The position numbers and the translations under genes were made by a program. Positions 378 through 61,517 of a stretch of 64,000 nt of DNA are shown in pieces (position 1 is the stretch's first letter; each line of letters starts with the position of its first letter). Origin of the DNA: an uncultured Christensenellaceae bacterium (GTDB taxonomy: Bacteria; Bacillota; Clostridia; Christensenellales; CAG-1252); assembly GCA_964391805.1 (NCBI GenBank), contig CAYMNK010000005.1, forward strand, positions 96,979-160,978, given 5' to 3'. The notes beneath the pieces are model-generated. The model saw only the letters and a program-made list of their open reading frames with translations, did not search any database and was not told where the DNA came from.

Positions 378-955
378 GCCGTCATATTGCTTCCCGTCCC
401 GTCATACTGAGCGTAGCATAAGCGGAGTCGAACTGCGTAGTAGTGCGAGGTGCAATCGAGCAGTATCTTGGACGGTAACGATAAGCTATTGTTTTTGTAT
501 CAGCTTTAATGATAATGAATAAGATTCCGACACCATGTGGTGTCGCCCTGCGGGTTCGACTTCGGTCTTTCGACCTCCGCTCAGAATGACATTGATTGGA
601 TGCTGACGCTTGCTGTGATATGGATGATTGTTAGACTTATGACCAAATTGGTGCATAATAAAAGCAAGTGCGAGGACTTGCTTTTGGCGGGCGTTTACTA
701 AACGCCCCTACACCATTTGTAATATATTGTCATCTTTTGAGTAAAGTATATGAGCGTAAATGTGCTATTTTTTATGGATTTTAGATTCCGACACCATAGG
801 GTGTCGCCCTGGGGGTTCGACTTCGGTCTTTCGACCTCCGCTCAGAATGACATTTGATGGTGCGGTGCTACTCCATCAGTATGACATTTGATGCTAAATT
901 GCTCATCATATTTTTGCTCAGTATGACGGTGGACAAAATTTAGTGTGACATTTGA
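378..955. repeat. Intergenic mosaic repeat locus R1: one inverted unit (378-485), two forward hairpin units (521-600, 776-862), one twin-hairpin module (658-712) and extra CAGTATGAC tails
   Basis: Hairpins cgacacca-tg-tggtgtcg (528-545) and cgacacc-atag-ggtgtcg (789-806) are each followed by gggttcgacttcggtctttcgacctccgctcagaatgaca. The sequence aaaagcaagtgcgaggacttgcttttggcgggcgtttactaaacgcccc matches copies at 24.5, 31.0, 55.9 and 61.5 kb. Confidence 0.9.
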
Positions 956-959
956 TTTT

Positions 960-1754
960 TTAGTCGATTTTGACTCCGTTGGCGTTTATTATAAACGCCT
1001 TTTTTGTAAGCGGATAATTGCTTCGCGCAGATGCCATGTAATCCTTAATCATACGCTGTGCTAATGGTATAAGTTTATCAAACATTTGTTCCAAACTAAC
1101 ATTGGTTTCCATTTTTTCGTTACGAATTTGTTCCCATGTATTTCTATTAACGTTCATATAATCGTTAATGAGCATATTATTAGGTTTCGGATCGGTAAAT
1201 GAGTAATTGTTAAATGCTTGTCTAAATGACGACGGCTCTACAACATAACCTAAACACTTGGGATCGATTGCGTTGGTATATAAATCGATTATATCGTCTA
1301 TAACAAAAGACCTTGCCTTGAAACTCCGCACTTCGTCAAGAGAGGAAAGCATGTGACTGCAACGTACATAATAATCGATGGAATCTGATATATCTTTGAG
1401 TTCCTCAACCGACAATTCGTCGTCAAAATAATGATGGACTCCGTGCTCGTACATATAGTATACATAAGGTTTCATACGACTATCAAGTAGATAGTGACAT
1501 ATCATTCCGAGCATATAACTCAATTGACATTTACTGCTACTACCGAGTATGTACTCCGCCGAACCCGCAAATAAACTGTATCCTTGCATGGAATCCAATT
1601 CTGCTTTTACAGTTCCTATGCCTTCGAAAACATCGGCACCCAATACACCAAGCCTAAAAGCATCGGGATATAACCTGATGACTTGACTACTACCTATGGG
1701 TAATCCCTCTGTTACCTTGGAGGCAAAGTATATTTGAGTGTAAAATCCTATCAT
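960..1754 (-). CDS. hypothetical protein, 264 aa, function unknown
   Basis: Long ORF placed 9 nt downstream of the PHP gene on the same strand, so probably one operon. I see no confident motif; a vague resemblance to zinc-dependent phospholipase C-like proteins is not supported by the expected N-terminal His. Confidence 0.55.
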   Translation of the reverse strand: MIGFYTQIYFASKVTEGLPIGSSQVIRLYPDAFRLGVLGADVFEGIGTVKAELDSMQGYSLFAGSAEYILGSSSKCQLSYMLGMICHYLLDSRMKPYVYYMYEHGVHHYFDDELSVEELKDISDSIDYYVRCSHMLSSLDEVRSFKARSFVIDDIIDLYTNAIDPKCLGYVVEPSSFRQAFNNYSFTDPKPNNMLINDYMNVNRNTWEQIRNEKMETNVSLEQMFDKLIPLAQRMIKDYMASARSNYPLTKKAFIINANGVKID

Positions 1755-1763
1755 ATAGTCTCC

Positions 1764-2516
1764 TTAATGCTTCTTAAATATCGGGCGTTTGTCGCCTAAG
1801 TTTACTATTCTATCCTCAATACCATATTTAGCGATAAGAGCGTTCGCTTCGTCAAATCGACCGACATCGCATGTGCGATGCGCATCGCTGTTAACTATCA
1901 GCTTGACATCGGTTGATAGCAATTCATCAAGTATATCGTCCAAAACAGCCAAATGCTTGATATTGATTTCCATATATGTTTGAGTGTCAACACACGCCTT
2001 CGCAACCTCTTTGACATCAAAAAAATAACGGTGATTGGGGTGTGTAATAAAATCTATATCATTATTGGTTATACATTTGATAAGTATACGCGTATTGCGC
2101 TTACGACATACACTACTGTTACAAAAGAATGGATTGAGCATGGACGGTAAATACATTCTAAACCAGTCTTTTATAGAAGCGGGACCGGTAAATTGGTGGA
2201 AACCAACAGATAAAACATCCAATAAAGACTTGTCGCTACCGGATATATCTATATGTCCTTCTTCATCGATAAAATCCGCTTCATTGCCAAATAATACATT
2301 GATAGAGTAGTTCGATTTGATCTTTTGTATATATTGGTACTCCACATGTAGTTTCTTTTGTGAATAACAAGTGTTCCTTAGTCCGTGCTCGGTAATGGCA
2401 ATATCCTTTAAGCCCTTAGCTTCCGCCGATTCGATAAGTTCCTCGATAGTGCACTTTCCGTCACTCCAGTATGTATGTGTATGATAATCTCCATAATAAT
2501 TCATAATACTAATCAT
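1764..2516 (-). CDS. PHP-domain phosphoesterase (histidinol-phosphatase-like family)
   Basis: The N-terminal GDYHTHTYWSDG motif, ITEHG, and the later FITHPN / NSDAH metal-ligand motifs are typical of PHP domains. Confidence 0.75.
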   Translation of the reverse strand: MISIMNYYGDYHTHTYWSDGKCTIEELIESAEAKGLKDIAITEHGLRNTCYSQKKLHVEYQYIQKIKSNYSINVLFGNEADFIDEEGHIDISGSDKSLLDVLSVGFHQFTGPASIKDWFRMYLPSMLNPFFCNSSVCRKRNTRILIKCITNNDIDFITHPNHRYFFDVKEVAKACVDTQTYMEINIKHLAVLDDILDELLSTDVKLIVNSDAHRTCDVGRFDEANALIAKYGIEDRIVNLGDKRPIFKKH

Positions 2517-2689
2517 AACACTTTTTTTGAAAATTGTCTATAATTCTCGAATAATTAAACGCAGTTTTGCCGTATTTTTTTGTCACGAATTTGACCTTGC
2601 TCGCATTTTTACATTTGTTTTACATTTTTATTTGATTATAAGGCGGATATTTGATATAATCTATATATATCTTTTTAAGGACGGATTAT

Positions 2690-6805: not shown

Positions 6806-7250
6806 GCGGATTTTAGATACCGACGCTATGCGTCGCCCTTCGGGTTCGACTTCGGTTTTCAACCTTCGCTCAGTATGACAAGATTGGAGCGCTGACGCTT
6901 GCCTTGATATGGATTAAGATTCCAATGCTTCGCTTTGCCCTATGGGTTCGACTTCGGGCTTTGCTTAGAATGACATTTGATGGTGCTCAGTATGACAAGA
7001 ATGTTATAGTCCGCCGTCATACTGAGTGGAGCGTAAGCGGAATCGAAATTCGAACAAAGTGAGAATCAAACGGCGTAGGCGTTTGGTATCTTGCGGACGG
7101 AATGATAAGTCTTTGTTATCGTATCCGCTTTTATTAATGCGGAATTAGATACTACAAGGCAAGCCTTGCACTGCTTCGCAGTTCGACTACAGACTTCGTC
7201 TTCCGCTCAGTATGACGAGACGGGAAGCTTAGTATGACATATATTTGATG
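6806..7250. repeat. Intergenic mosaic repeat locus R2: four units, three forward and one inverted (7010-7115), each with a different first hairpin
   Basis: The hairpins are cgacgc-tat-gcgtcg (6821-6835), caatgc-ttc-gctttg (one mismatch), the inverted unit's caaacg...cgtttg, and caaggc-aa-gccttg. All are followed by TTCGA(C/T)T ... (C/T)TCAGTATGAC tails. Confidence 0.9.
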
Positions 7251-7291
7251 ATTTTGCAAATAATATAAATAATCTACCACCTATACTACAT

Positions 7292-8803
7292 ATGAAAAAT
7301 GGTAAACGAACACTTATAAAGAGCGGAATAGTTCTAACGGTTTTCGGTGTTATCTCCAAAGTTATAGGACTGTTTTATAGAATTCCGCTTACCAATTTAC
7401 TCGGAGCAAACGGAATGGGGGTATATCAAATGATATTCCCGGTCTACGCATTACTTGTGGCGGTAGTATCTTCTGCTGTTCCTGTTTTGGTATCGAAAAA
7501 TCTCAATGCGTTGAGTGACACCGAATTAAAAAAGGGATTCTTCACCGAATCATTTTTTTATTCATTATCAACCGGTTTGATATTTGGCATTGGACTTATT
7601 GCCGTCGCTAAGTTGTTGGGGTTATTGCAAGGAAATGCTGAAGTCGAAACCGGATATTATATGATAGCACCTGCAGTTTTCTTTGTATCGGTGCTGTCGG
7701 CATTTCGAGGCTGGTTTAACTCGTGTTTAAATACCATTCATACGGCAATCAGCGGACTTTTCGAACAACTATTCAAACTGTCGGGAATTGCTACTTGCTA
7801 TATTTTTGGATTAGAAGGGATAAAAGCGGTTAACATCGCACTTTTAGGCATATCGTTGTCGGAATTTGTTGCTTGCGCATATGCGTTAATTATGTTTTTA
7901 GTTAAGGGCGGACGACTTGTTCGCGGTATTATACGAGTTCCGTTTTCGGCGTTTGTATCGGCATCAGCTCCTTTGACGGTGGGCGGACTCGTATTTCCGT
8001 TAGCATTATTTACAGATAGCATACTTGTTACAAGACTGTTGGCGTTACATGGTTTATCCGAAGCGGATGCAATTACCGAGTACGGCATTTTTTCGGGTGC
8101 GGTAGGCACGCTTATCAATGTTCCTCAAAGCCTTGCTATTTCGTTTGCGGTAACAATGATACCTGTAGTTGCAAGACACAAGAAGGAACAAAACATTAAA
8201 GGTATAAGAAGAGGGGAAATGACGGCGTTAAAAGCGGTTTTGATTATTGCTTTACCCTGTGCCGTTGCGTTATTTGTATTAGCTAAGAGCGTGATAGCGT
8301 TCCTTTATCCTGCATTTTCCGCAAGCGAGCAATCACGCGCGGTTTTTCTTCTTCAAATATCGGTCATACAAATACCCATATTGAGCGTACTTCAATTATT
8401 CGGTTCCTTTTTGCAAGCACTCGATAAAGGGGTAGTATCGGCAAAAAACATGATAATTGCTTGTGTAATCAAACTTGGAATAAACTTTACTTGTATTCGA
8501 TTAGGAATAGAAGGCATAATATTAGCAAATACAATTTGTTATTCCGTTTGTGCGGTACTCGATATCATATACGGATACCGTCTTACAGGCAAAACCGAAT
8601 TCAAAAGCGGAATACCGATATTGTTCGCGTCTCTCATCATGGGTGGAATTATGCTTCTAATTAATAAAAAAATATCAAATAATCTTCTGTCGCTTGCACT
8701 TTCGTTGTTGATTGGCGGAGCAATTTATGTTATAATACTACTAATATTAAACAAGATCGGCAATAGTTTACCCCAAAAAGCCGATCGATCGGAGGAATTA
8801 TGA
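7292..8803 (+). CDS. MOP-superfamily flippase (SpoVB / YabM / MurJ-like polysaccharide biosynthesis protein)
   Basis: About 14 predicted TM segments. The N-terminus LIKSGIVLTVFGVISKVIGLFYRIPLTNLLGANGMGVYQM is typical of SpoVB/YabM. It lies directly upstream of a yabN-like gene, as in Bacillus. Confidence 0.75.
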   Translation: MKNGKRTLIKSGIVLTVFGVISKVIGLFYRIPLTNLLGANGMGVYQMIFPVYALLVAVVSSAVPVLVSKNLNALSDTELKKGFFTESFFYSLSTGLIFGIGLIAVAKLLGLLQGNAEVETGYYMIAPAVFFVSVLSAFRGWFNSCLNTIHTAISGLFEQLFKLSGIATCYIFGLEGIKAVNIALLGISLSEFVACAYALIMFLVKGGRLVRGIIRVPFSAFVSASAPLTVGGLVFPLALFTDSILVTRLLALHGLSEADAITEYGIFSGAVGTLINVPQSLAISFAVTMIPVVARHKKEQNIKGIRRGEMTALKAVLIIALPCAVALFVLAKSVIAFLYPAFSASEQSRAVFLLQISVIQIPILSVLQLFGSFLQALDKGVVSAKNMIIACVIKLGINFTCIRLGIEGIILANTICYSVCAVLDIIYGYRLTGKTEFKSGIPILFASLIMGGIMLLINKKISNNLLSLALSLLIGGAIYVIILLILNKIGNSLPQKADRSEEL

Positions 8804-10176
8804 TTACAGTCGTTGGATTAGGATATGCCAAAAACGATTTGACCTTAGGTGCACTCGATGTTATCAAGCGTGCTCGTAAAGTTTACGTCCGTACTGCCTT
8901 GACTAAAGCAGGAAAAGCTCTTATGGAATTGCGAGATAATATAGTAGCATTCGATTATTTATACGAAAGTGCTACCGATTTTGACGAACTTAAAGCATCT
9001 ATCAAGGCGGAGCTTTTGTCCGATTCGGACTGCGTATTTTGTGTAGACGGTGCAGGCGGAGACGATCCGATCGTCGTGGAACTATCCAAAAGCGAAGATA
9101 TCAAAATCATAAGCGGTGTTTCCATTTCGTCCTTCGCACTAAGCATCTATCCCGATTGTTCGGTCGAGGTCAAGAATGCGTCCGATATTGTGAGTCGTAA
9201 ATTTATGCTTGCGTCCGATTCTACCCTTGTAATCAAGGAGATCGCCGATAAATACTTGGCATCCGAACTTAAACTAAAGTTGCTCGATGCATACGGTGAA
9301 ATTAAGTGTATATTGGTGTCTTCAGGTAAACAAAAAGAAATAGATGTAGTCGATCTCGATAGAGAAAAAAGATACGATTACTCAACCTTCGTTATATTGC
9401 CACATCAAGGCTTCTTGGATCGTAAACGTTATACCATATCTGACTTATATGAGATAGTATATGCATTAGTTGCACCCGATGGATGTCCTTGGGATAAGGT
9501 TCAAACACATAAGACCATTCGTGACTGTTGCTTAGAAGAAGCATACGAACTTGTCGAAGCGGTAGAAATGGATGATATCGATAAAATGGTTGAAGAATCG
9601 GGTGACGTATTGTTACAAGCCATCTTCCATTCAAATATAGCCGAACGTAGCGGAGAATATACCCTTAACGACGTTATCACAGGTATTTGTAAGAAACTTG
9701 TCGGTCGTCATTTACATATATTTGCGGGTGAAACTGCATCCAATCCCGAAGAAGCCTTGGCTGTTTGGGAGAAAGCTAAGGCTATGGAAAAATCACAAAA
9801 AACATACAGTGATAGAATGGAGCAAGTTGCATTAACCCTTCCTGCGTTAACTCGTGCAGGTAAAATACAAAAGATTTCCGAAAAAATGGGATTCACCCAA
9901 GATTCTACCGAATATTGGCTTGATAATATCAATGAGGAAATTCAAGAATTCCTCGAAAATAAAACGGAAGAGGAAGCAGGCGATATCTTATATGCCGTAG
10001 TTAGATTGATTCGCAGTTTCGGACTCAATCCAGAACTATCCTTGATGACCACTACTCGCAAAATGATAGGTCGCTTTGAAAAAATGGAAAAGGTAGCACT
10101 CGAGAGAGGACTCGATTTTAAATCAATGACTCGTGAAGAGGTTATTGCCCTATACGCTGAGGTAAAAAATGTTTAA
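8800..10176 (+). CDS. mazG: YabN-type fusion: tetrapyrrole-methylase-like N-domain plus MazG nucleoside-triphosphate pyrophosphohydrolase
   Basis: The start overlaps the upstream stop (ATGA). MazG-type motifs are CPWDKVQTHKTIRDCCLEEAYELVEA and a second EEAGDILYAVV repeat. Confidence 0.85.
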   Translation: MITVVGLGYAKNDLTLGALDVIKRARKVYVRTALTKAGKALMELRDNIVAFDYLYESATDFDELKASIKAELLSDSDCVFCVDGAGGDDPIVVELSKSEDIKIISGVSISSFALSIYPDCSVEVKNASDIVSRKFMLASDSTLVIKEIADKYLASELKLKLLDAYGEIKCILVSSGKQKEIDVVDLDREKRYDYSTFVILPHQGFLDRKRYTISDLYEIVYALVAPDGCPWDKVQTHKTIRDCCLEEAYELVEAVEMDDIDKMVEESGDVLLQAIFHSNIAERSGEYTLNDVITGICKKLVGRHLHIFAGETASNPEEALAVWEKAKAMEKSQKTYSDRMEQVALTLPALTRAGKIQKISEKMGFTQDSTEYWLDNINEEIQEFLENKTEEEAGDILYAVVRLIRSFGLNPELSLMTTTRKMIGRFEKMEKVALERGLDFKSMTREEVIALYAEVKNV

Positions 10177-11107
10177 AATAGGTTCGGTTGAACTCAGTTC
10201 CAATATTCTTTTAGCCCCTATGGCGGGAGTTAGCGATACCGGATTTAGGTATTTAGCGCGAAAATACGGAGCGGGACTTACATACACCGAAATGATTAGC
10301 GTAAAAGCATTGTGTTTCGGTAACAAAAGGACCTTTGAATTGTTGCGTTTGGCTCCTAATGAGACTCCATCGGCAGTTCAATTATTCGGTAGCGATCCCG
10401 AAGCTTTTTATAATGCGTGTAAGCTCGATGCTATACGCTCTTTTGATATTATAGATATTAATATGGGATGTCCGGTGCGTAAGGTTGTTTCGAGGGGCGA
10501 GGGTAGCGCTCTTATGAAAACTCCGTCGTTAGCGGAAGAAATCGTGCATGCTTGTATCGAAGGATCAGGCAAAACGGTAACTGTCAAACATCGTAGCGGT
10601 TTCGAAGAAGAAAATGCCCCCGAATTCGCAATGCTAATGGAAAAAGCAGGTGCATCGGCTATTACCATTCACGGACGTACAAGAGAACAAATGTATACAG
10701 GTTTTGCCGATAGAGGTGTCATCAAGAGAGTCAAAGAAGCAGTAACCGTGCCTGTATTCGGGAACGGAGATATCAAGTCGGCGGAAGACGTACATTCTAT
10801 GATGTCTGAAACAGGATGTGACGGTGTAATGATTGCTCGCGGTGCTATAGGTAATCCGTCCATTTTTGCAGATGTATTAGGTAACAACGTGAGCGTTGAT
10901 ATATATGCCGACATTCTCAAACACATTTCACTTCTTGAAGAAAACACCGCCGAACAGTCTATAGTCGGACTTATGAAATGCCACCTTATGGGATATGTCA
11001 AAGGGCATCCGGGTGCAAGAGATATTCGTTTTGCAGTAGGTACAGCCAAAACGATGCAAGACATTTTAGATATAGCCAAGCGGATTTCTCTCTGCGTCAA
11101 CGAATAA
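10169..11107 (+). CDS. dus: tRNA-dihydrouridine synthase
   Basis: LAPMAGVSDTGFR, DINMGCP, HGRTREQMY and ARGAIGNPSIF motifs. Confidence 0.88.
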   Translation: MFKIGSVELSSNILLAPMAGVSDTGFRYLARKYGAGLTYTEMISVKALCFGNKRTFELLRLAPNETPSAVQLFGSDPEAFYNACKLDAIRSFDIIDINMGCPVRKVVSRGEGSALMKTPSLAEEIVHACIEGSGKTVTVKHRSGFEEENAPEFAMLMEKAGASAITIHGRTREQMYTGFADRGVIKRVKEAVTVPVFGNGDIKSAEDVHSMMSETGCDGVMIARGAIGNPSIFADVLGNNVSVDIYADILKHISLLEENTAEQSIVGLMKCHLMGYVKGHPGARDIRFAVGTAKTMQDILDIAKRISLCVNE

Positions 11108-11120
11108 TTATTCAATCAAT

Positions 11121-11212
11121 GCTATTCGTTACCGTCCAAGATACTGCAAGGTAAACCTTGCACTGCTACACAGTTCAACTGCGGACTTCGTCTTAGAATG
11201 ACATTTGATGGT
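11121..11212 (+). repeat. Intergenic mosaic repeat locus R3: a single forward unit
   Basis: cgttaccgtccaagatac + tgcaagg-taaa-ccttgca (11145-11162) + ctgctacacagttcaactgcggacttcgtcttagaatgacatttgatgg. Confidence 0.9.
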
Positions 11213-15383: not shown

Positions 15384-15523
15384 ACTAACATACTATTCTC
15401 TTTTATTATAAATAATTCCATATTTATACTATCGTTTTTGCAAAAAACCATTCTTTTATTATTTTTTTTAGCCTCCAAATGAGGCAAAAATGATTAAAAA
15501 TCAAAAAGATGACCAAAAAAATG

Positions 15524-15552
15524 TTGACTAAAACAAATATATATTATATAAT
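15524..15552 (+). promoter_or_regulatory. sigma-A promoter for the rpmH operon
   Basis: TTGACT (15524-15529), 17-nt spacer, TATAAT (15547-15552). Confidence 0.7.
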
Positions 15553-15617
15553 CTAAGGGCTTGTGTTTAACACGAGAATTTTTTTAACGTAAAAATCTAT
15601 ATAAGCGAGGATATATT

Positions 15618-15758
15618 ATGGCAATGTTTAGAACATATCAACCCAAGAAGAGACACCGTTCAATGGTACACGGTTTCCGTCAAAGAATGTCCACCAAAGG
15701 TGGCAGAAACGTTTTAGCAAGAAGACGCGCTAAGGGCAGAAAGAAACTTTCCGCATAG
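15618..15758 (+). CDS. rpmH: 50S ribosomal protein L34 (46 aa; below the ORF-track cutoff)
   Basis: Hand translation gives [46 protein letters not shown], the canonical L34. It sits upstream of rnpA. Confidence 0.95.
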
Positions 15759-15765
15759 TAAGTCG

Positions 15766-16098
15766 ATGCAACGACAGTACCGTTTAACCAATCGACGCAG
15801 CTTCGACTATATCTACAAACACGGTAAGTGTTATAATGATAATTTGTTTACTCTCGTTTGTTTGGAAGGTAAATATCCATCATTCAGAGTAGGTTTTGTT
15901 ACGGGTAAAAAGGTCGGTAAAAGCGTTATTCGCAATAAGGTTCGCCGTAGAATGAGGGAAGCATTCCGTTGTTTCAAGGTTGAAGGATATAATTCCTATA
16001 TACTTGTGGCTCATTCTCGTGCGAGCGAAGCGACATTCGATGAGGTGAAGGAATCTGTCGGTATTTTATTATCAAAAGCCGGGAAGTTAGTTCAATGA
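15766..16098 (+). CDS. rnpA: ribonuclease P protein component
   Basis: Basic 110-aa protein with the KKVGKSVIRNKVRRRMREAF RNR motif, in rpmH-rnpA synteny. Confidence 0.92.
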   Translation: MQRQYRLTNRRSFDYIYKHGKCYNDNLFTLVCLEGKYPSFRVGFVTGKKVGKSVIRNKVRRRMREAFRCFKVEGYNSYILVAHSRASEATFDEVKESVGILLSKAGKLVQ

Positions 16099-16337
16099 AA
16101 GCACTTGCCAGGTTTTTGTTAAAATTTTATAAAAAGTATATTTCTAACGCAATCTCTGCGTCGTGTATTTATACTCCGACATGCTCGTCATATACCTATC
16201 AAGCGATAGAAAAGTACGGATTTTTCATCGGTTGCTTTAAGGGCGGACTGAGAATTTTGAGATGTAATCCGTTTGCTAAAGGCGGTTTTGATCCCGTTAG
16301 AGAGAATTATAGAGGAAAAGCAAAATGGTTAATTTAG
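16095..16337 (+). CDS. yidD: membrane protein insertion efficiency factor YidD
   Basis: The C...TPTCSSYTYQAIEKYG...LRILRCNPF motif family. It overlaps the rnpA stop. Confidence 0.9.
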   Translation: MKALARFLLKFYKKYISNAISASCIYTPTCSSYTYQAIEKYGFFIGCFKGGLRILRCNPFAKGGFDPVRENYRGKAKWLI

Positions 16338-17503
16338 AATTTTTATTTTCCCAAGCTCCCCAAATCACCAATTGGATCGGTAAACTTATTTATATGCTTT
16401 ACGAGGCAATCGGTAATTTCGGTTGGACGGTCGTAATCTTCACCTTATGTTTGAAGGTGATTGTTTCTCCCCTCGATATTTGGCAAAAGAAGGTTACGAG
16501 GAAAAATAATATTGCAATGAAGAGGATGGAAAAGCCCATGGCTCAACTCCGTGACGCATATCAGGACGATCCTCGTATGTTGCAAACCAAACAAATGGAA
16601 CTTTATAAGCAGTACGGCTATTCCACCTTTGGAGCATGCCTACCCAGTTTGGTGACGATGATTATATTCTTCGTTATTTTTCAAGGCTTCAACGCAACCT
16701 GTAAATACGAAAACCAAATGATGGTTTACGATCTTGCACAATCTTACGAATCACTCGTGGTCAATACTGGGCTTATTGACGGTAAAATACAAGATCTGTT
16801 TTTAGAAGAAAACAAGGATGCATACGATACACTTGTTCGCTACGGCGTAGACGTTGAGCAATATAGGGATCGTACCGAATTCACCGATGAAGAAGTCGAC
16901 GAGTTTATCGATTCCATCATGTTAGCCGCATACGATGCCAATTCTGTCACCGATAAAGGTGTTAAAAAATGGGAGTGGCTGTGGGTAGATAACGTATTTA
17001 TGGGTGATTCATGGCACGACACAGTACCTACACTTGAAACATACGTAGGTACCGGTTTGGGTAAGTTAAATTCATCCTTGCCCGATTGTAACTTTAGAGT
17101 TCGCGCAAAATATAATTCGAATATATATAACGCACTGTTAGCACCTGCTCAAGCGAAATATAATAAAACCAAAACTTTCGATATCAAGAATTGGAACGGC
17201 TATTTGATTCTTCCTCTTCTTTCTATCGCTTTATCAATTCTTTCCACAAAGCTTTTGCGTGCCGGTACGCCTAAGACACAGTCTTATGATGCTAACGGTA
17301 ACGCCATCGATACGGATAAGCAAATGAGAATGATGAATTGGTTTATGCCTATTATGATCGGTGTATTCAGTTTGTTCTACACGGCTGCGTTTACGATATA
17401 CATGTTCTTCAGTTCGTTGATAACGGTTATATTCAATTTAGTATATAATGCCGTTTCCAAGAAGAAGGACGCTGAAATGGAAGAAGGAATCATTAAGAGG
17501 TAA
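16325..17503 (+). CDS. yidC: YidC/Oxa1-family membrane insertase (long form, 392 aa)
   Basis: Synteny after yidD. The segments IVIFTLCLKVIVSPL, MELYKQYGYSTFGACLPSLV and the C-terminal TM helices match YidC. A roughly 150-aa insert separates the conserved parts. Confidence 0.85.
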   Translation: MVNLEFLFSQAPQITNWIGKLIYMLYEAIGNFGWTVVIFTLCLKVIVSPLDIWQKKVTRKNNIAMKRMEKPMAQLRDAYQDDPRMLQTKQMELYKQYGYSTFGACLPSLVTMIIFFVIFQGFNATCKYENQMMVYDLAQSYESLVVNTGLIDGKIQDLFLEENKDAYDTLVRYGVDVEQYRDRTEFTDEEVDEFIDSIMLAAYDANSVTDKGVKKWEWLWVDNVFMGDSWHDTVPTLETYVGTGLGKLNSSLPDCNFRVRAKYNSNIYNALLAPAQAKYNKTKTFDIKNWNGYLILPLLSIALSILSTKLLRAGTPKTQSYDANGNAIDTDKQMRMMNWFMPIMIGVFSLFYTAAFTIYMFFSSLITVIFNLVYNAVSKKKDAEMEEGIIKR

Positions 17504-17505
17504 CT

Positions 17506-19519: not shown

Positions 19520-19522
19520 TAT

Positions 19523-24310: not shown

Positions 24311-25185
24311 GAATGAAGAGTAATAAGTGAAAATGTGTTGATTCTTTGATTGATGGAGAACGTTATCGTTCGCAAGATTCCATTTATCGTTACCGCCTAA
24401 GATACTGCAAGGCGATGCCTTGCACTGCTACGCAGTTCGACTACGCTTACGATAGTATGACATTTGATGAGTAATATAATTTGTGCAAATAAAAAGCAAG
24501 TGCGATGACTTGCTTTGGGCGGGCGATTACTAATCGCCCCTACTTTTGTAATATTTTGTTGTTCTTTATGCAATTTATATGTCCTTTTATATGCTTTTTT
24601 ACAAGGAATTTAGATACCGACGCTATGCGTCGCTGCTTCGCAGTTCGACTACGGTCTATCGACCTACGCTCAGTATGACATTTGATAGTAAAATGCTATT
24701 CAAAGTTTTAGAATGAGAAGATGGGCAATATTATTTCTGCAAATAAAAAGCAAGTGCGATGACCTGCTTTTGGCGGGCGATTACTAATCGCCCCTACTTT
24801 TGTAATATTTTGTTGCTCTTTATGCGATTTATATGTGCTTTTATATGCTTTTTTACAAGGGATTTAGATACCGACGCTATGCGTCGCTGCTTCGCAGTTC
24901 GACTACGCTCAGTATGACATGATCGTTGCTCCGCTATGCAGTTCGATTTCGCTTACGATAGTATGATAAGATTGGTCGCTGTCGCTTAACAAGGAATAAG
25001 ATTCCGACACCGATGGTGTCGCCCTACGGGTTCGACTACGGTTTTTCACCCTTCGCTCAGAATGACATTGATGGTGCGGGGGACTTAGAATGACATTTGT
25101 TTATCCATAACATTGCTTAGCATTACATCATTTGCAATGACGGGACGAATCAGTATGACTGCGGACGGCGTAGTAACAACATTAA
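24311..25185 (+). repeat. Intergenic mosaic repeat locus R4 (the largest): leader-like module F, about six hairpin units, two tandem copies of the ~200-nt twin-hairpin composite, and a partial module E
   Basis: See findings. Segment 24431-24687 is nearly identical to 30953-31210. Copies of aaaaagcaagtgcgatgac(t/c)tgcttt(t)ggcgggcgattactaatcgcccc lie at 24490-24540 and 24746-24794. Confidence 0.92.
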
Positions 25186-40639: not shown

Positions 40640-41040
40640 ATTTAATGGAATTTCGTCCGCAAGATTATATGTCATCCTGAGCAAAATCGAGGAATCTAAT
40701 TCCTTGTTTATAAGGATTTTAGATTCCAATGCTTCGCATTGCCCTATCGGGTTCGACTACAGGCTACGCCTTTCGCTCAGTATGACATTATTGGACGTTT
40801 AGAATGTCATTAACAATATGTGCGTTATCGTCCGCATCAATCAAAAATTCATATAACGGCGGACAAAAATCCGCTTTTATAATTTGGATTAAGATACTGC
40901 AAGGCAAGCCTTGCACTGCTTCGCAGTTCGACTTCGGTCTATCGACCTACGCTCAGTATGACATTGATGGTACGGCGCTATTCAGTTCCGCTCAGTATGA
41001 CACTTGATTGTAAAGTACTTTTCTGAGTTAAGTATGACAT
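40640..41040 (+). repeat. Intergenic mosaic repeat locus R6
   Basis: Units carry caatgc-ttc-gcattg (near 40727) and tgcaaggc-aa-gccttgca (near 40897). There are four (C/T)(T/A)AGTATGACA tails and a short GTCCGC...GCGGAC-bounded element at 40826-40866. Confidence 0.9.
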
Positions 41041-42351: not shown

Positions 42352-42652
42352 AAGGATTTTAGATTCCGACGCATTGCGTCGCCCTACCGGGTTCGACTAC
42401 AGACTTCGTCTTTCGCTCAGAATGACCTTATTAGACGCTTACGCTTGCCTTGAAATGGGATAGGATAGTGTCACCTATGGTGGTTCGACTTCGCTTACGC
42501 TCAGTATGACATAATCGTGGTTGTTATCGTCCGCAAGATACCAAATTGTTGCACAATTTGATTCGCACGATGTGCGAATTTCGACTACAAGGGCGCGATT
42601 AGTAATCGCCCGCATCAATCAAAAATCCATATAACGGCGGACGAGATGTGGG
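42352..42652 (+). repeat. Intergenic mosaic repeat locus R7: three forward units plus an inverted twin-hairpin fragment
   Basis: Hairpins are cgacgc-att-gcgtcg, cacc-tat-ggtg, caaattg-ttgca-caatttg and ttcgcac-gat-gtgcgaa. The fragment gggcgcgattagtaatcgcccgc is also present. Confidence 0.9.
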
Positions 42653-43811: not shown

Positions 43812-44068
43812 TTGGATTAGATACCTACGCTATGCGTCGCCCTACGAGTTCGACTTCGGTCTATCGACCTTCGCTGTAGGGGCCGATTAGTAATCGCCCT
43901 ATCCTTGTTAAGGCAAGCGATAACGTCCCCATATGTTATTCCAAGCGTAGAAAACTACGATAAGATGACACATATATTTATCCGCAATTTTGCGATAGCA
44001 ATACATCATTTGCCGAATAGGCAAACTTCATTCATCATTATGCGTAGCAGAACATCATTTGCAATAAC
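43812..44068 (+). repeat. Intergenic mosaic repeat locus R8: a truncated unit, an inverted twin-hairpin fragment, an inverted linker and a full module E abutting the DUF4349 gene stop
   Basis: ggattagatacctacgctatgcgtcgccctacgagttcgacttcggtctatcgaccttcgct is followed by gtaggggccgattagtaatcgccc. Module E (43965-44068) has ttgc-gata-gcaa, tttgcc-gaata-ggcaaa and tgc-gta-gca. Confidence 0.88.
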
Positions 44069-44069
44069 G

Positions 44070-52796: not shown

Positions 52797-52885
52797 ATGA
52801 TTTGGATTAAGATACTGCAAGGCAAGCCTTGCACTGCTTCGCAGTTCGACTTCGCCAAGGGTGCGATTAGTAATATTTTGTTGTT
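52797..52885 (+). repeat. Intergenic mosaic repeat locus R9: a truncated unit fused to an inverted twin-hairpin fragment
   Basis: ttttatgatttggattaagatactgcaaggcaagccttgcactgcttcgcagttcgacttcgcc is followed by aagggtgcgattagtaatattttgttgtt. The first 60 nt are identical to 55815-55874. Confidence 0.88.
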
Positions 52886-55726: not shown

Positions 55727-55958
55727 AGGATGCAGATACCGACGCTATGCGTCACCCTATCGGGTTCGACTACGCTTACTACGCTTGGGTATGACAAAAT
55801 TGGACGCTGGCGCTTTTATGATTTGGATTAAGATACTGCAAGGCAAGCCTTGCACTGCTTCGCAGTTCGACTGCGGTTTTCAACCTTCGCTCAGTATGAC
55901 AAGAACCGCAATAGTAAGTACATAATAAAAGCAAGTGCGAGGACTTGCTTTTGGCGAA
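55727..55958 (+). repeat. Intergenic mosaic repeat locus R10: two forward units plus the first hairpin of the twin-hairpin module
   Basis: gcagataccgacgctatgcgtcaccctatcgggttcgactacgc... comes first. It is followed by ggattaagatactgcaaggcaagccttgcactgcttcgcagttcgactgcggttttcaaccttcgctcagtatgaca, then aaaagcaagtgcgaggacttgctttt. Confidence 0.9.
55921..55952 (-). terminator. terminator of the P-type ATPase gene, provided by the repeat-family hairpin
   Basis: A 10-bp stem aaaagcaagt/acttgctttt lies 30 nt past the ATPase stop. On the minus strand it is followed by TTTTATTAT. Confidence 0.7.
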
Positions 55959-55982: not shown

Positions 55983-58634
55983 TTATAGGTCGTCGGCGAA
56001 GCGGGTGCGACGCAATATACATTTACGAATAATGTCGTAAGGAATAATTGCGAGACTTAAACCGAATATTACTAACCACTGATAAATATCGAGTCCCGTA
56101 CATTGGAATACGGCTCCGCCAAACTGCGTCAATATGATTTGGATTACGAAAATCAAACCGATACAAGGCAAGAATCCCTTATTCTCACGAATGTTGTTAA
56201 ACAGCGTAATAGAACTTGTACGAGTATTGAAGGCGTTGAAAATCGCACTTAACATAAAGAATGTAAAGAATGCCGTATGTGATACCGTCGCTTCGGATGT
56301 AGTGTCAAACGGGAAGAAAGATACAAACGCAGGCAATTTAAGAATCAGCATTCCTATAACTACCACAAAGACTGCAGATGTGATTATCCTAATCCACATC
56401 GATTTACTGATGATGTCTCCGTCTCTACTCTTCGGTTTTTCATCCATATATTTCGGAAGGGGCGGTTCTCCACCGAATGCGATTGCCGCAAGGGTATCTA
56501 TTACGAGATTCACCCATAATATTTGGATAATACTTAACGGTTCCGCTATACTGAAGAATGATGCAAGGAAACTGATAAGTACCGCCGCGATATTTATCGA
56601 GAGTTGGAATACGACAAACTTACGAATGCTATTAAAAATGGTTCTACCGTATAAAACCGCTCTTGCTATGGTGGAGAAATTATCGTCAAGAATAACTAAA
56701 TCACTCGCCTCCTTAGCAACTTCCGTACCACCGCCCATACCAAAGCCTACATCGGCTTTCTTGAGTGCGGGAGAATCGTTGACACCGTCACCGGTCATAC
56801 CGACAACGAGGTTCATACTCTTACTGATATCTACAAGTCTACTCTTATCGCTGGGCAACGCTCTTGCAATCACCTTAATATTCGGCAAACAATCCTTGAT
56901 GTCGTCGTCAGACATACTTGCAAGCTCGTCGGAAGTGAATACGAGGTCGTCTTCACTATCGATAATGCCTGATTCCTTGGCAATGGCAATTGCCGTTTCT
57001 CTGCGGTCACCGGTAATCATTACTACCTGTATACCCGCTCTTTGTACTTCGGCTATGGCTTCAACCGCCTCGGGGCGAACATCGTCACGAATGCCGATAT
57101 ACGCGACAAGAGTAAGTTGAGCGTCGCTTAAATTGCCGTCGACAATTTCATCGTTAGTGTACGCAAATATCAATACACGCATTGCACGAAGGGCTAAATC
57201 GATAATAGATCTATCGATAGAAGACGGATCGGTTAACGGTTGTTCTCTACCTTCCGCATCGAGATAGTATTTACAACGAGGTAAAAGTCTTTCGGGAGCA
57301 CCCTTTATAATTGTTTTACCGTTGTCGAGGGTGACACAGGAATATTTATTCGTACTATTGAAAGGAATGCTATTAATAACGCCCTTGGGTTTGGTTTCGC
57401 TATCAATAACATATTGAGCCAACGCCCTCTCGGTAGCGTTACCGCCGACAACCGTCAAGTTTCCCAACTCATCTTTAGTCAATATCGACTGGGTGTTTGT
57501 CAAAATATTATCGGTCAATTCGTCCATAATCGGCTTAGGAATGGCGTTCGGTTCGGTATATGCCTTTCCGCTACCGTCATGTACCGAGACTACTTCGAGT
57601 TTACCTTTGGTAATCGTTCCGGTCTTATCCGAAAAAAGTATGTTAAGACTTCCTGCCGTTTCGATACCTACTATTTTACGAACAAGAACGTTTTCCTTGA
57701 GCATCTTGTTCATATTAAGTGCGGAAACCAATGCAATCATCAAAGGTAAGCCTTCCGGAACAGCCATTACTATAATAGTGACGGCTAACATTAACGCTTC
57801 GACACAATCACCGAATACTACCATCCAGTCACCCGAGAAATAGGCACTAATCAATTGAGGATCAAAATTGTTTTCTATAATAAATTTGAGGAATAAATAG
57901 GATAACGCTATGAGTATACCGCCAATATAGCCAAATACACTTATCATTTTGGCAAGTTTTTCAAGTTTAACCTTTAGTGGTGACGGTCTATCGTCGTTTT
58001 GCTGTAGTTCCTCTGCAATTTTACCATATACAGACTTATCACCAACAACAGTTACTCTCATTACGCCGTTACCGTTACAAACGATGGAACCGCGGTATAC
58101 GCTACTGTAATCGAGAAAATCTCTATAATCGGTTTCTTCACCGGGAACTTTGGTAACATCCTTACTTTCACCGTTTAACGCAGACTGATCGACAGATACC
58201 TCGCCTTCAATGATTATACCGTCTGCGGGAACTTTATCGCCAAGTTGCAATAATACTATATCGCCGACTACAAGGTCGTCTATAACTATCTCTTTGATAA
58301 CTCCGTCTCTAAATACCTTACATATAATTCGAGATGCCTCTTCTTGGAGTTTTTTGAAAACATTTTCGTTACGATACTCCGAAAAAGTCGAAACAAAGGT
58401 TGCTAATAACACTGCTATCGAAATGCCTACGGGTTCGTACCATTCGCACTTACCGAAACATGCAATCACAATATTGATAACCAATGCAACCAATAATATT
58501 TCTATCATCGGATCTTTGAAGTTTCTTAATAACTTTTTCCAGAACGATTCGCCTTTGACTTCGGTAAGTTTGTTATCACCGTGTTCCGCTCTGGAGCGAA
58601 CTACTTCTTGTTCGCTTAATCCCTTATAGTTCAT
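55983..58634 (-). CDS. P-type cation-transporting ATPase, Ca2+ (P2A/P2B) type
   Basis: DKTGTITKG phosphorylation site, TGES-like NGESK, PEGLP, MITGDRRETA and GDGVNDSPALKKADVG, with 10 TM segments. Confidence 0.9.
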   Translation of the reverse strand: MNYKGLSEQEVVRSRAEHGDNKLTEVKGESFWKKLLRNFKDPMIEILLVALVINIVIACFGKCEWYEPVGISIAVLLATFVSTFSEYRNENVFKKLQEEASRIICKVFRDGVIKEIVIDDLVVGDIVLLQLGDKVPADGIIIEGEVSVDQSALNGESKDVTKVPGEETDYRDFLDYSSVYRGSIVCNGNGVMRVTVVGDKSVYGKIAEELQQNDDRPSPLKVKLEKLAKMISVFGYIGGILIALSYLFLKFIIENNFDPQLISAYFSGDWMVVFGDCVEALMLAVTIIVMAVPEGLPLMIALVSALNMNKMLKENVLVRKIVGIETAGSLNILFSDKTGTITKGKLEVVSVHDGSGKAYTEPNAIPKPIMDELTDNILTNTQSILTKDELGNLTVVGGNATERALAQYVIDSETKPKGVINSIPFNSTNKYSCVTLDNGKTIIKGAPERLLPRCKYYLDAEGREQPLTDPSSIDRSIIDLALRAMRVLIFAYTNDEIVDGNLSDAQLTLVAYIGIRDDVRPEAVEAIAEVQRAGIQVVMITGDRRETAIAIAKESGIIDSEDDLVFTSDELASMSDDDIKDCLPNIKVIARALPSDKSRLVDISKSMNLVVGMTGDGVNDSPALKKADVGFGMGGGTEVAKEASDLVILDDNFSTIARAVLYGRTIFNSIRKFVVFQLSINIAAVLISFLASFFSIAEPLSIIQILWVNLVIDTLAAIAFGGEPPLPKYMDEKPKSRDGDIISKSMWIRIITSAVFVVVIGMLILKLPAFVSFFPFDTTSEATVSHTAFFTFFMLSAIFNAFNTRTSSITLFNNIRENKGFLPCIGLIFVIQIILTQFGGAVFQCTGLDIYQWLVIFGLSLAIIPYDIIRKCILRRTRFADDL

Positions 58635-58807
58635 CTATGCCTCCACTCGGTCTTTGTAGATAGACCGCGCAAATAGTTGTTGTGTAAATTCATTTTATTA
58701 TTATACCATATTTCAAAAATAATAACATACTAATAATAGGTACCTTATTTGAAAAATGCAACAATTATTACAATATCTTAATAAATTTTCCGTTTACGGA
58801 TACCTAA

Positions 58808-60316: not shown

Positions 60317-60328
60317 GAGGAATTAATC

Positions 60329-61162
60329 ATGAGTTATGCAGATGAAGTTTTTAAGCAAAACATCCGCGATATTTTAGAAAACGGCTTTTCTGATGAAGGA
60401 CTAAAGGTGCGTCCATATTGGGCGGATGACCACTCCCCCGCTCATACCGTAAAAAAATTCTGCATAGTAAATAGATACGACCTATCTAAAGAATTCCCGA
60501 TTATGACGCTTAGAAAAACTAACTTCCGTGCCGCAATCGATGAAATATTATGGATTTGGCAAAAAAAATCTAACAACGTCAACGATTTAAATAGCCATAT
60601 TTGGGACGCATGGGCGGACGAAAGCGGTAGCATCGGTAAAGCTTACGGCTATCAACTCGGAATCAAACACCAATACCCCGAAGGCGAATTCGATCAAGTG
60701 GATAGAGTTTTGTATGACCTCAAAAACAATCCCGCATCGAGAAGAATTATGACAAACATTTATGTGCATCAAGATTTGCACGAAATGAACCTCTATCCTT
60801 GCGCTTATTCGGTGACGTTCAACGTGACAGGCAATAAACTCAATGCAATACTCAATCAACGTTCTCAAGATATGGTGGTTGCAAACAATTGGAATATCGT
60901 ACAATATGCAGTCCTTGTACACATGTTTGCACAAGTTAGCGGACTCGAGGTCGGAGAACTTGTACATGTAATTGCCGATGCTCATATATATGATAGACAT
61001 ATTCCTATTGCAAAGGGTATGATAGAAAGAGTACCGTTTAATGCTCCTAAATTGATCATCGATAAGTCAATAACGAATTTCTATGATTTTACCGTTGATA
61101 GCTTTTCACTCGAAGGTTACGAATGGCATAAATTAGGATGTAAATTACCGGTAGCGGTATAA
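60329..61162 (+). CDS. thyA: thymidylate synthase (B. subtilis ThyA-like subtype)
   Basis: ILWIWQKKSNNVNDLN, NPASRRIM, the catalytic PCAYSV, and RSQDMVVANNWNIVQY. Confidence 0.93.
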   Translation: MSYADEVFKQNIRDILENGFSDEGLKVRPYWADDHSPAHTVKKFCIVNRYDLSKEFPIMTLRKTNFRAAIDEILWIWQKKSNNVNDLNSHIWDAWADESGSIGKAYGYQLGIKHQYPEGEFDQVDRVLYDLKNNPASRRIMTNIYVHQDLHEMNLYPCAYSVTFNVTGNKLNAILNQRSQDMVVANNWNIVQYAVLVHMFAQVSGLEVGELVHVIADAHIYDRHIPIAKGMIERVPFNAPKLIIDKSITNFYDFTVDSFSLEGYEWHKLGCKLPVAV

Positions 61163-61196
61163 AAAAAAGTCCTCACCGATTGGTGAGGCTTTTTTA
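61163..61196 (+). terminator. rho-independent terminator after thyA
   Basis: An A8 run, stem cctcacc-gatt-ggtgagg, then c plus a T6 run. Confidence 0.85.
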
Positions 61197-61204
61197 ATAA
61201 TAGG

Positions 61205-61460
61205 TAATAGTGAATAGTGAAGATGTGTAGATTGAGTGGATTGATGGTAATCGTTACCGTCCAAGATACTGCAAGGCAAGCCTTGCACTGCTTCGCAGTT
61301 CGACTGCGCTTACGCTCCGCTCAGTATGCCGGGACGGGCGCTAAAGCGAATCATTTTGCGGATGCAGATACCGACGCAAAGCGTCGCCCTATAGGTTCGA
61401 CTACAGACTTCGTCTTCCGCTCAGTATGGCATCAATAGACAAATATAGTAAGTGCAAAAT
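61205..61460 (+). repeat. Intergenic mosaic repeat locus R11: leader-like module F plus two forward units
   Basis: taatagtgaatagtgaagatgtgtagattgagtggattgatggtaatcgttaccgtccaagatac is followed by tgcaaggc-aa-gccttgca.... The second unit carries cgacgc-aaa-gcgtcg. Confidence 0.9.
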
Positions 61461-61517
61461 AAAAAGCAAGTGCGATGACTTGCTTTTTGCGGGCGATTAC
61501 TAATCGCCTTTTTTTTT
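61461..61517. terminator. twin-hairpin module acting as a bidirectional terminator between thyA (+) and potD (-)
   Basis: Hairpin 1 is aaaaagcaagt-gcgatg-acttgcttttt. Hairpin 2 is ggcgatt-act-aatcgcc followed by a T9 run. Read on the minus strand, hairpin 1 is followed by TTTTTATTTT. Confidence 0.75.

Follow-up and report, generated by a model that had tools for sequence, protein, structure and literature searches.

The repeats closest to those described here are the NTS of Neisseria (CGTCATTCCCGCGMAVGCGGGAATCYRG) and the related SRM repeats, which flank genes for single-domain GIY-YIG Ssn proteins (cd10448) (Chenal et al., Nat Commun 2025, PMC11893778). Neisseria SsnA binds and cuts only the single-stranded DNA (ssDNA) of the NTS strand, a few nucleotides (nt) upstream of the repeat, and acts on neither double-stranded DNA nor RNA; cleavage depends on the three bases that precede the palindrome, and binding on the C directly behind it, the most critical base in N. 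meningitidis (PMC11893778). Ssn is encoded by 81% of the genomes with more than 200 SRMs, no SRM was assigned to 29% of the ssn loci, and the published SRM string is HGTCWYN(0-2)YYVSBRHN(0-5)WNVSBRGN(0-2)RNCYNB (PMC11893778). CGTC-tagged REPs carry an unpaired CGTC tag (also TGTC or CCTC), A-T and T-A pairs at stem positions 1-2 and a short tail, and form head-to-head dimers; they have been reported in Proteobacteria, Chlorobi, Bacteroidetes, Spirochaetes and Thermotogae, not in Firmicutes, and no transposase flanked by them was found (Di Nocera, De Gregorio and Rocco, BMC Genomics 2013, PMC3733652). Here we analyze a modular, hairpin-bearing intergenic repeat family in 64 kb of contig CAYMNK010000005.1 from an uncultured Christensenellaceae bacterium (positions 96,979 to 160,978; "the window" denotes this whole stretch). 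We regard its units as DNA-level hairpin repeats of the SRM/NTS type, of the same class as the CGTC-tagged REPs and forming a branched Clostridial version of the Ssn system, a reading to which we assign a probability of about 0.7.

An initial annotation of the window, made from the sequence alone, had compared the family with REP and BIME elements. That was right in kind, as these are combinatorial, hairpin-forming intergenic repeats. The REP/BIME and REPIN-RAYT systems of Enterobacteria and Pseudomonas are similar in outline: their short ssDNA hairpins bear an unpaired tag of four nucleotides and cluster as mosaics between genes, and the repeats flank the single-copy gene of their nuclease. 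They differ in their GTAG tag and in an enzyme that is a Y1 (HUH) transposase rather than a GIY-YIG protein, and there is no sequence similarity. Correia elements of Neisseria, RUP and BOX of Streptococcus, and ERIC are also abundant, structured, modular intergenic repeats, built as miniature inverted-repeat transposable elements (MITEs) bounded by terminal inverted repeats or as modular A-B-C boxes. To our knowledge none of them matches the present family in sequence or architecture, and none has its (T/C)GTC-AT signature.

Structure of the repeat unit

Units in the window were collected with nhmmer, using a profile built from units delimited by regular expression, and were then curated by hand; their + strand is the orientation in which the initial annotation wrote them. 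Counts of covariation, fold and tag refer to 119 non-identical units, and alignment A1 holds 21 subtype-B units. A unit spans 60-77 nt, or 75-95 nt with its outer stem P1, in the order (P1 5' arm) - N-AG - P2 5' (AU-NNN) - H1 - H2 - UUCGACU - NN - H3 - YNCGCUC - P2 3' (NNN-AU) - GAC(A/G) - (P1 3' arm). The consensus given initially, AGAT(A/T)C, hairpin 1, CTGC-TTC-GCAG or CCC-NNN-GGG, GTTCGACT, a small hairpin and CGCTCAG(T/A)ATGAC, agrees with this order. It listed TCGACCT as an element of its own, which is actually the 3' arm of hairpin 3 (GGUC-UUUC-GACC or AGAC-UUC-GUCU), and it overlooked P2, a covarying stem that pairs AGAU-NN with N'N'-AUGAC.

The third pair of P2 is C-G in 69 units, U-A in 33 and A-U in 11, amounting to covariation in 113/119 with 6 exceptions, and the first two pairs, A-U and U-A, are invariant in 118-119 of the 119 units and in all 21 of A1. 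Within A1, P2, H1, H2 and H3 are 97-99% paired, and both partners have changed in 16 of 25 pairs. Double-change cells number 59 as against 24.3 +/- 3.8 in shuffled alignments, none of 500 of which reaches 59, and 85% of cells are paired compared with 35-46% in registers shifted by 1-3 columns. The unit is a branched hairpin supported by covariation.

Three subtypes are distinguished by their accessory hairpins, and chimeras between them are present: A (H1 UGCNNGGC..GCCNNGCA, H2 CUGC-UUC-GCAG), B (H1 CGAYRC..GYRUCG, H2 CCC-NNN-GGG) and C (H1 CAAACG..CGUUUG, H2 AUYCUC..GGAU). P1 differs in sequence between copies; it is well paired in copies from metagenome-assembled genomes (MAGs) and missing from most window copies, which instead have flanks recurring in this lineage only, NNGG|ATT(T/A)AGAT and ..ATGACATTTGATGG|. 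No consistent target-site duplication was found at the units.

It is the complementary strand that resembles the described hairpin repeats. This strand is the more stable in 101/119 units under RNA parameters and in 110/119 under DNA parameters, the latter including 15/16 window units. Its fold has an unpaired (T/C)GTC tag (TGTC in 99, CGTC in 19 and GGTC in one of the 119), a P2 stem starting A-T, T-A, a GAG/CGA continuation, and a C directly after the stem. That C, the complement of the G of AGAT, is invariant in A1 and kept in 26 of 28 curated window units and partial units, and the 3' tail CU(C/A/U) complements GAG in 65 units, TAG in 34 and AAG in 15. The junction strands GAGCG and AGUCGAA could extend P2 by tandem G.A pairs and one G-C pair, an extension that we predict from base complementarity; the same positions on the strand written initially are pyrimidine-pyrimidine mismatches. 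H1 and H2 stand laterally and H3 apically, giving a four-way junction that an outer closing stem, P1, often completes.

Minimal cores, for example GATCC-TTCGCTTCGCTCA-GGATGACA, consist of P2 and the two junction strands without H1, H2 or H3, and on the complementary strand the minimal unit reads TGTC-ATCCT-GAGCGAAGCGA-AGGAT-CTC. The accessory hairpins are therefore additions to a short hairpin repeat.

Several RNA classes were considered and set aside. The core nucleotides of the hammerhead (CUGANGA/GAAA), twister-sister, hatchet and k-turn do not fit by eye, and Rfam is silent on them. UUCGACU is identical to the T-loop consensus of tRNA, but no T-stem follows it (again by eye). Independent small RNA genes of the form promoter-unit-terminator were likewise rejected: there are 5 promoter-like sites where 4.9 are expected, and the terminator-like hairpins belong to other modules.

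Association with Ssn-type GIY-YIG genes

When open reading frames (ORFs) were clustered across 90 unit-bearing MAG loci, the only recurrent small neighbor was a GIY-YIG protein of about 90 amino acids (MYYVYILTN..IYIGVTNDL.RR..EH). The suggested lead of RAYT or IS200/IS605 genes thus found no support, in a clustering that included no dedicated Y1 or RAYT search. The GIY-YIG ORF lies 13-156 nt from a unit in 6 MAG loci, and in one (L069) inverted composite units stand on either side of it. Homologues number 3,403 at E<=1e-10, and most of their contigs measure 0.5-2.7 kb, which points to assemblies broken by repeats. Family members abut the ORF in four further independent loci. A composite unit overlaps the stop codon in P0038; in P0115 the ORF, which has inserted between trkA and trkH, is flanked on either side by 85-nt direct repeats, each a reverse plus a forward minimal unit; P0055 is preceded by one minimal unit at a distance of 35 nt and followed by a tandem array of five minimal units of 35 nt each; and in P0083 a minimal unit sits right behind the stop codon. 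NCBIfam holds no specific model for the protein and the PDB only a distant UPF0213 relative. An N. gonorrhoeae ORF that has seven canonical NTS copies around it shares 46% identity with one homologue, P0001 (E=7e-17, 94% coverage).

To place this association on an unbiased footing, 80 metagenomic ssn loci were fetched by a profile of the GIY-YIG protein and searched within 250 nt of the ORF for the core GAT-NN...N'N'-ATGAC. A core was present in 65/80 loci, at a density of 4.9 per kb near the ORF as against 0.63 per kb elsewhere. Upstream of the ORF the nearest core is inverted in 39/56 loci, and downstream it is direct in 32/43, at median distances of 42.5 nt and 33 nt respectively, so that the ssn gene is bracketed by inverted copies with their tags outward. 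Such symmetric, tags-outward flanking is characteristic of an enzyme accompanied by sites of its own.

Two side observations concern the same loci. At L118 (10290-10480), five minimal units of 35 nt (CCCACCCCTGTCATCCCGAGCTTGTCGAGGGATCTC) stand in perfect tandem register directly 3' of an ssn homologue, head-to-tail like the chains in the window. Public gene calls read several ssn ORFs upstream through the repeats (P0031, P0060, P0096, P0110, P0092), and the resulting junk N-termini, ..YAQDD.. or ..AQDD.., ..SLRMT.. and ..SEAKDL.., are a quick marker of the repeat family in annotations.

Comparison with described repeat systems

The initial annotation had recognized the sequence as none of the repeats familiar to it. 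That the family stands apart from everything known is not supported: it shares the defining features of both NTS/SRM and CGTC-tagged REPs, and its minimal members flank Ssn-type genes. With NTS/SRM it has in common an oriented hairpin repeat in which an unpaired HGTC tag precedes an AT-start stem and a C follows directly; a high extragenic copy number (hundreds in SRM genomes, 28 units and partial units in the 64 kb of the window); copies on both sides of an ssn gene, seen elsewhere in the family; and a single meaningful strand. It differs in a stem of 4-5 Watson-Crick pairs plus tandem G.A where NTS/SRM have 8-9 perfect pairs, and in a junction with three extra hairpins in place of a 0-5-nt loop, making units of 60-77 nt (75-95 nt with P1) rather than about 28 nt. 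Units of the window family also often have an outer closing stem and nest in one another, and their host is a spore-forming member of the Clostridia, whereas Firmicutes are unnamed in the main text of PMC11893778.

CGTC-tagged REPs, which include Neisseria dRS3 and Rickettsia RPE-4 and RPE-6, share the CGTC/TGTC tag, the A-T plus T-A stem start and the lack of a link to a classical transposase. Their stems of 8-9 bp and loops of 4-5 nt contrast with the 4-5 Watson-Crick pairs of P2, and minimal forms reach 8-9 "pairs" only with the tandem G.A counted. A short 3' tail is present in both, reading CCA there and CUN here; tags-outward dimers predominate in the MAGs (25/35 pairs), but window copies are mostly head-to-tail or single. 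No later paper describing this repeat class was found, and a search of the full-text literature with strings of the core sequence returned unrelated primers only.

Abundance, distribution and orientation

All 11 loci named in the initial annotation carry the family, as judged by reading them and by a direct-repeat search that yielded many interlocking repeat families restricted to these loci. Together with other modules they occupy 4,088 nt, or 6.4% of the window, in line with the earlier estimate of about 4.1 kb and 6%; the curated units and solo 3' ends alone make up 1,831 nt (2.9%). The figure of about 30 units was roughly right. Curation counts about 28 full and partial units, of which 25 lie on the + strand and 3 on the - strand, and at least 6 solo 3' ends; 24 units are found by the nhmmer profile at E<=1e-3. 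A 40-nt core has 3 matches where 0.00 are expected by chance, and the 18-mer CTGCTTCGCAGTTCGACT occurs 8 times. No unit lies inside a gene, which bears out the expected intergenic restriction. The statement that nearly every gap longer than 150 nt is built of these modules was too strong, as 11 of the 18 intergenic regions of >=150 nt are occupied.

The worry that the repeats might be an assembly artefact or confined to the window can be laid to rest. Window copies are 60-100% identical to one another, window 7188-11154 has a 100% identical counterpart in an independent Logan contig (L001), and units occur in many other MAGs; copy divergence and the independent contig exclude an artefact. Both ends of that contig fall within units, as expected of a high-copy repeat.

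A contig scan with the 18-mer returned at least 90 MAG loci among the matches listed, nearly all from gut Clostridia (Oscillospiraceae, Lachnospiraceae or Christensenellaceae) of much higher GC than the window. The same architecture and the same three subtypes recur in the flanks of these distant loci, and the tag, the AT-start stem and the following C are kept across genomes of 38-60% GC. In about 25-30 cases in the MAG loci a complete unit of opposite orientation is nested exactly at the H3 position of another, and the gap from UUCGACU to CGCUC is bimodal (0-30 nt or about 90 nt). A BLAST search of plasmid and phage records with a unit gave no match, and 2.9 million viral contigs scanned for the pattern yielded only 6 hits; this near-absence indicates that the units are chromosomal. 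A search for an autonomous version, an ORF between 5' and 3' half units with matching P1 arms, found none within 150-5000 nt.

Of 35 adjacent pairs in the MAGs, 25 are head-to-head (GACA ends and tags outward), 8 tail-to-tail and 2 head-to-tail; the window has 2, 1 and 6 pairs of these kinds. Between tandem genes in the MAGs, unit orientation is random with respect to the genes (20 same, 17 opposite), and units lie between convergent genes in 29 cases versus divergent genes in 10. A preference for convergent regions together with random orientation is typical of tolerated selfish DNA. Separately, a same-strand bias independent of gene direction is seen in the window (25/28 units on +) and in two relatives, with 9/9 minimal cores in L204 and 4/4 units in L205. 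A replication-linked orientation was rejected as its source, as the 25:3 bias of the window does not flip across the rpmH-rnpA cluster or at the turn in GC skew near 42 kb.

Turnover among relatives

Four relatives (L121, L122, L204 and L205) were found through the Dus protein that adjoins one repeat locus. One of them, L121 (from SRR33013286), is 98% identical in amino acids and 89% in nucleotides over window 7234-11108, and its 9.1 kb hold no unit, 3'-end motif or core. Its homology with the window stops exactly at repeat loci (7234, 11108 and 52744), and the junction retains only a decayed remnant, ..TTTGGTCGCTTCCGTTTAAAAATGACATATATTT... No units were found in 20.9 kb of L122 (about 70% nucleotide identity), whose synteny blocks with the window also end at repeat loci. 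L204 (Dus identity 78%) has nine minimal cores on one strand, some of them 3' of Dus, and no full units; L205 (Dus identity 71%) has four units on one strand, all full and of subtype B, one of them between SpmB and MurJ, a spacer with four units in the window. In the presence/absence comparison proposed initially, close relatives lack units at orthologous sites. The family is old in this clade, while copy number, form and occupancy turn over quickly.

Synteny blocks shared with L121 and L122 end at window 7234, 11108, 41261-42317, 52744 and 56022-58644, and the MurJ-MazG-Dus block, a DUF2804 gene and a P-type ATPase gene, which are neighbors in the relatives, are 30-50 kb apart in the window. 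That blocks end at repeat loci suggests repeat-associated rearrangement.

Proposed mechanism and alternative explanations

By analogy with Neisseria SsnA and NTS, an Ssn-family ssDNA endonuclease with a single GIY-YIG domain, its gene lying in another part of the genome, would bind the fold of the TGTCAT strand when this strand is single-stranded during replication, repair or DNA uptake, and would cut a few nucleotides 5' of the tag, in a region that is here the conserved CCATCAAA. That or another enzyme would also spread these particular units, and Ssn activity or recombination between copies may underlie their spread, nesting and rearrangement. The units behave like REP/REPIN-type selfish DNA, non-autonomous, multiplying and decaying within lineages and promoting rearrangements, and the short hairpin has been elaborated in this Clostridial lineage by the addition of H1, H2, H3 and often P1.

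Several points weigh against this interpretation. The SRM string has no hit on either strand of the window and matches only 2/90 MAG loci and 2/80 ssn-flanking loci, and only the minimal copy at 40670-40698 and the relatives in L204, L118 and L120 approach the simple hairpin form. H1, H2 and H3 place 45-60 nt between the P2 strands of window units, and with such an apical "loop" recognition by Ssn could have been lost. Most window units lack P1 and are arranged head-to-tail rather than as inverted dimers, and the interpretation does not account for their 25:3 strand bias. There is no ssn homologue in the 64 kb of the window or in 72 kb from the four relatives, so the pairing of enzyme and repeat in this particular organism is something that we infer. 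We know of no transposition activity shown for any Ssn enzyme. The function shown in Neisseria is the restriction of incoming ssDNA (PMC11893778). The working features, namely the tag, the AT stem and the following C, are nevertheless kept, and on these grounds we place the family with the SRM and CGTC-REP elements despite the failed string and the large loop.

More tentatively, and with somewhat less than even confidence, the units may form a distinct, undescribed Ssn-related class, (T/C)GTC-AUCCU-GAG...CGA-AGGAU-C, with tandem G.A pairs and a four-way junction in Clostridia and with its own Ssn clade of new specificity. If so, self-nesting at H3, head-to-tail chains, solo 3' ends and presence/absence at 89% identity would be the clearest sign so far of active mobility in SRMs, beyond a role as restriction tags, and whether Ssn nucleases also drive the spread of repeats would become directly testable.

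Apart from Ssn, the units might be REP/REPIN or MITE elements mobilized by RAYT, an IS200/IS605 Y1 enzyme or another classical transposase, with the GIY-YIG genes as neighbors that use the repeats as landing sites. Their hairpin-based, high-copy, extragenic nature fits such an origin, as do the REPIN-like inverted dimers of the MAGs (25/8/2); one-ended or site-specific insertion could account for the solo 3' ends and the head-to-tail chains, and as far as we know no Ssn enzyme has been shown to transpose anything. We nonetheless consider this explanation unlikely. The tag is (T/C)GTC and not GTAG, no split units enclosing an ORF were found, and the ORF clustering of 90 loci, albeit without a dedicated Y1-transposase search, gave the GIY-YIG gene alone, which in the ssn loci is flanked symmetrically, tags outward, at medians of 33-43 nt. 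No transposase was found among the genes of the window, as the initial annotation had also stated, and no GIY-YIG or ssn gene either. CGTC repeats, moreover, flank no transposase in the survey of Di Nocera et al. (PMC3733652).

A structured non-coding RNA family, for example a ribozyme-like or protein-binding four-way junction transcribed with its neighbors or from its own promoters, had also been raised initially and strikes us as quite improbable. The strong compensatory covariation, the highly conserved junction strands, the enrichment of units downstream of genes in convergent intergenic regions and the terminator-like hairpins interleaved with them would all be at home in such a family, and yet orientation in tandem contexts is random (20 same versus 17 opposite), three window loci are antisense to both adjoining genes, promoter-like sites are not enriched, and the orthologous intergenic regions of close relatives lack units. 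Nesting, truncation and chimeras are instead typical of selfish DNA. The proposed Rfam check gave no matching family: in the window tRNA alone reaches its gathering score and no unit matches even at E<=5, and a gathering-score scan of 18 MAG loci gave a single match, to a tetrahydrofolate (THF) riboswitch elsewhere. Neisseria SsnA, for its part, does not bind RNA (PMC11893778).

Least probable, and in our view very unlikely, are host-exapted signals (terminators, mRNA 3' stabilizers, nucleoid or gyrase sites, or recombination hotspots) with no dedicated enzyme active, which would suit units lying 3' of genes beside intrinsic terminators, synteny breakpoints at repeat loci, the decay of many copies and the retention of family members in some of the same intergenic regions of relatives, but would leave unaccounted for both the conservation of tag, AT stem and C across genomes of 38-60% GC and the tight association with ssn genes, and would sit poorly with the dispensability of units at orthologous sites of close relatives.

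Features of the window and companion modules

The host of the window is a spore-forming Clostridia bacterium of about 39% GC that encodes SpoIIE, SpmA/B-like proteins and a BclA-like collagen; SRR10277277 contains the same organism. The individual repeat units are listed in Table 1.

Table 1. Repeat units, partial units and solo 3' ends of the family in the 64-kb window.
Feature	Positions	Strand	Evidence and remarks
Full unit, subtype A, P1 CCGTCC/GGGACGG (391-477)	400..468	-	nhmmer E=5.6e-16; left partner in inverted, tags-outward dimer with 522-591
Full unit, subtype B (H1 CGACACC/GGTGTCG, H2 CCC-UGC-GGG, H3 GGUC-UUUC-GACC)	522..591	+	nhmmer, alignment
Full unit, subtype B	783..852	+	nhmmer, alignment
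Solo 3' end (CTCAGTATGACGG)	917..929	+	3'-end motif scan
Full unit, subtype B	6815..6880	+	nhmmer, alignment
Subtype B, H3 truncated	6917..6975	+	nhmmer
Solo 3' end	6986..6998	+	3'-end motif scan
Full unit, subtype C (H1 CAAACG..CGTTTG, H2 ATTCTCAC..GTTCGAAT), P1 GTCCGC/GCGGAC (7006-7100)	7015..7091	-	nhmmer; inverted dimer with 7147-7217
Full unit, subtype A (H1 ACAAGGC-AA-GCCTTGC, H2 CUGC-UUC-GCAG, H3 AGAC-UUC-GUCU)	7147..7217	+	nhmmer; Logan contig L001 begins inside
Solo 3' end	7228..7240	+	motif scan; homologous ATGACATATATTT in unit-less relative L121
Subtype A, chimeric: 5' P1 half TACCGTCC, ATTTGATGG-type 3' flank	11139..11203	+	nhmmer; L001 ends inside
Subtype A without H3	24400..24462	+	nhmmer
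Hybrid (H1 of B, H2 of A), in 243-254-nt composite present three times	24612..24680	+	direct repeats (family D1), nhmmer
Hybrid without H3	24866..24919	+	direct repeats, nhmmer
Degenerate unit, 5'-truncated	24926..24968	+	direct repeats (family D2)
Full unit, subtype B	24999..25067	+	nhmmer
Solo 3' end	25084..25096	+	3'-end motif scan
Hybrid, GGAT instead of AGAT, without H3	30926..30984	+	nhmmer
Hybrid with H3	31134..31203	+	nhmmer
Full unit, subtype C, P1 CGTCCGC/GCGGACG (31223-31306)	31232..31297	+	regular expression
Solo 3' end	31312..31324	+	3'-end motif scan
Minimal unit (TGTC-ATCCT-GAGCAAAATCGA-GGAAT-CTA), lacking accessory hairpins, as do the copies next to ssn genes elsewhere	40670..40698	-	sequence
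Full unit, subtype B	40721..40787	+	nhmmer
Full unit, subtype A	40892..40963	+	nhmmer E=6.8e-16
Solo 3' end	40991..41003	+	3'-end motif scan
Full unit, subtype B, tag GGTC	42361..42427	+	nhmmer
Degenerate unit	42458..42511	+	nhmmer
Subtype C 5' half fused to other module	42536..42588	+	sequence
Subtype B without 3' junction	43819..43875	+	nhmmer
Subtype A 5' half	52810..52855	+	nhmmer
Subtype B, 3' part degenerate	55734..55796	+	nhmmer
Full unit, subtype A	55831..55901	+	nhmmer E=8.4e-16
Subtype A, P1 CCGTCC/GGGACGG, tag mutated (GCC)	61264..61331	+	nhmmer
Subtype B, GGCA at tag position	61366..61431	+	nhmmer

Other modules share the repeat loci. A second module consists of two terminator-like hairpins (AAAAGCAAGTGCGATGACTTGCTTTT, bidirectional, then GGGCGATTACTAATCGCCC with a T-run) and is found at 655-722, 24487-24554, 24741-24808, 31009-31076, 55918-55956 and 61457-61524; joined to a unit and an AT-rich spacer it makes up the 243-254-nt composite, which occurs three times (24426-24668, 24680-24922 and 30948-31190) at 77-98% identity. 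A third module, tandem small hairpins spaced by AUGA(A/U)G, lies at 31306-31382 on the - strand and also at 25100-25142 and 44027-44069, just 3' of the stop codons of minus-strand genes; its Rfam match to Gut-1 RNA is weak and falls below threshold, at 24 bits (E=2.5) where the gathering score is 50. The hairpin CGTCCGC-ATCAATCAAAAAT(T/C)CATATAAC-GGCGGAC at 40833-40870 and 42600-42645 combines the P1 arms of subtype C with an unrelated 22-nt loop, and at 42536-42645 a 5' half unit and another module stand between P1 arms. This hairpin may be an "empty" or alternative filling of P1.

An origin-type gene cluster spans 15384-24237 (rpmH, rnpA, yidD, yidC, jag, mnmE, mnmG, rsmG, noc/parB, parA and parB), with no dnaA alongside and glmM upstream in its place; the cumulative GC skew passes through a local minimum near 16 kb and a maximum near 42 kb. 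Among the MAG contigs, an element of about 120 nt (..CCGACAGTACACCTAAAAGGTGTAACACACTATACCTTGC..GTGTGAAAAGGAGTACGAAC..GTACTCCTTTTGTT) that ends in an intrinsic terminator occurs in at least 8 Clostridia MAG species (L023, L024, L044, L047, L052, L072, L087 and L090), about 150 nt upstream of a composite unit. Its flanking genes vary and it has no Rfam match; it may be an undescribed small RNA or a further repeat module. The THF riboswitch lies at 6211-6320 of L003, a contig of a unit-rich Oscillospiraceae MAG, scores 43 bits (above its gathering score) and is unrelated to the repeats.

Implications

The Ssn/SRM system was described in 2025, mainly in Proteobacteria, and the published pattern misses the present class. 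If the units are what we take them to be, the system or its relics can fill about 3-6% of a Clostridial genome region, and the recognition hairpin accommodates or gains large branched insertions. Synteny breakpoints fall at the repeats, and metagenome assemblies of gut Clostridia break at them; the repeats also explain many spurious "hypothetical proteins" (..SLRMT.., ..AQDD..) in Clostridia annotations. The GIY-YIG genes that they flank would widen the set of candidate ssDNA-specific nucleases with new specificities, and the family would allow the question of whether repeats are spread by their Ssn enzymes to be addressed in a natural system.

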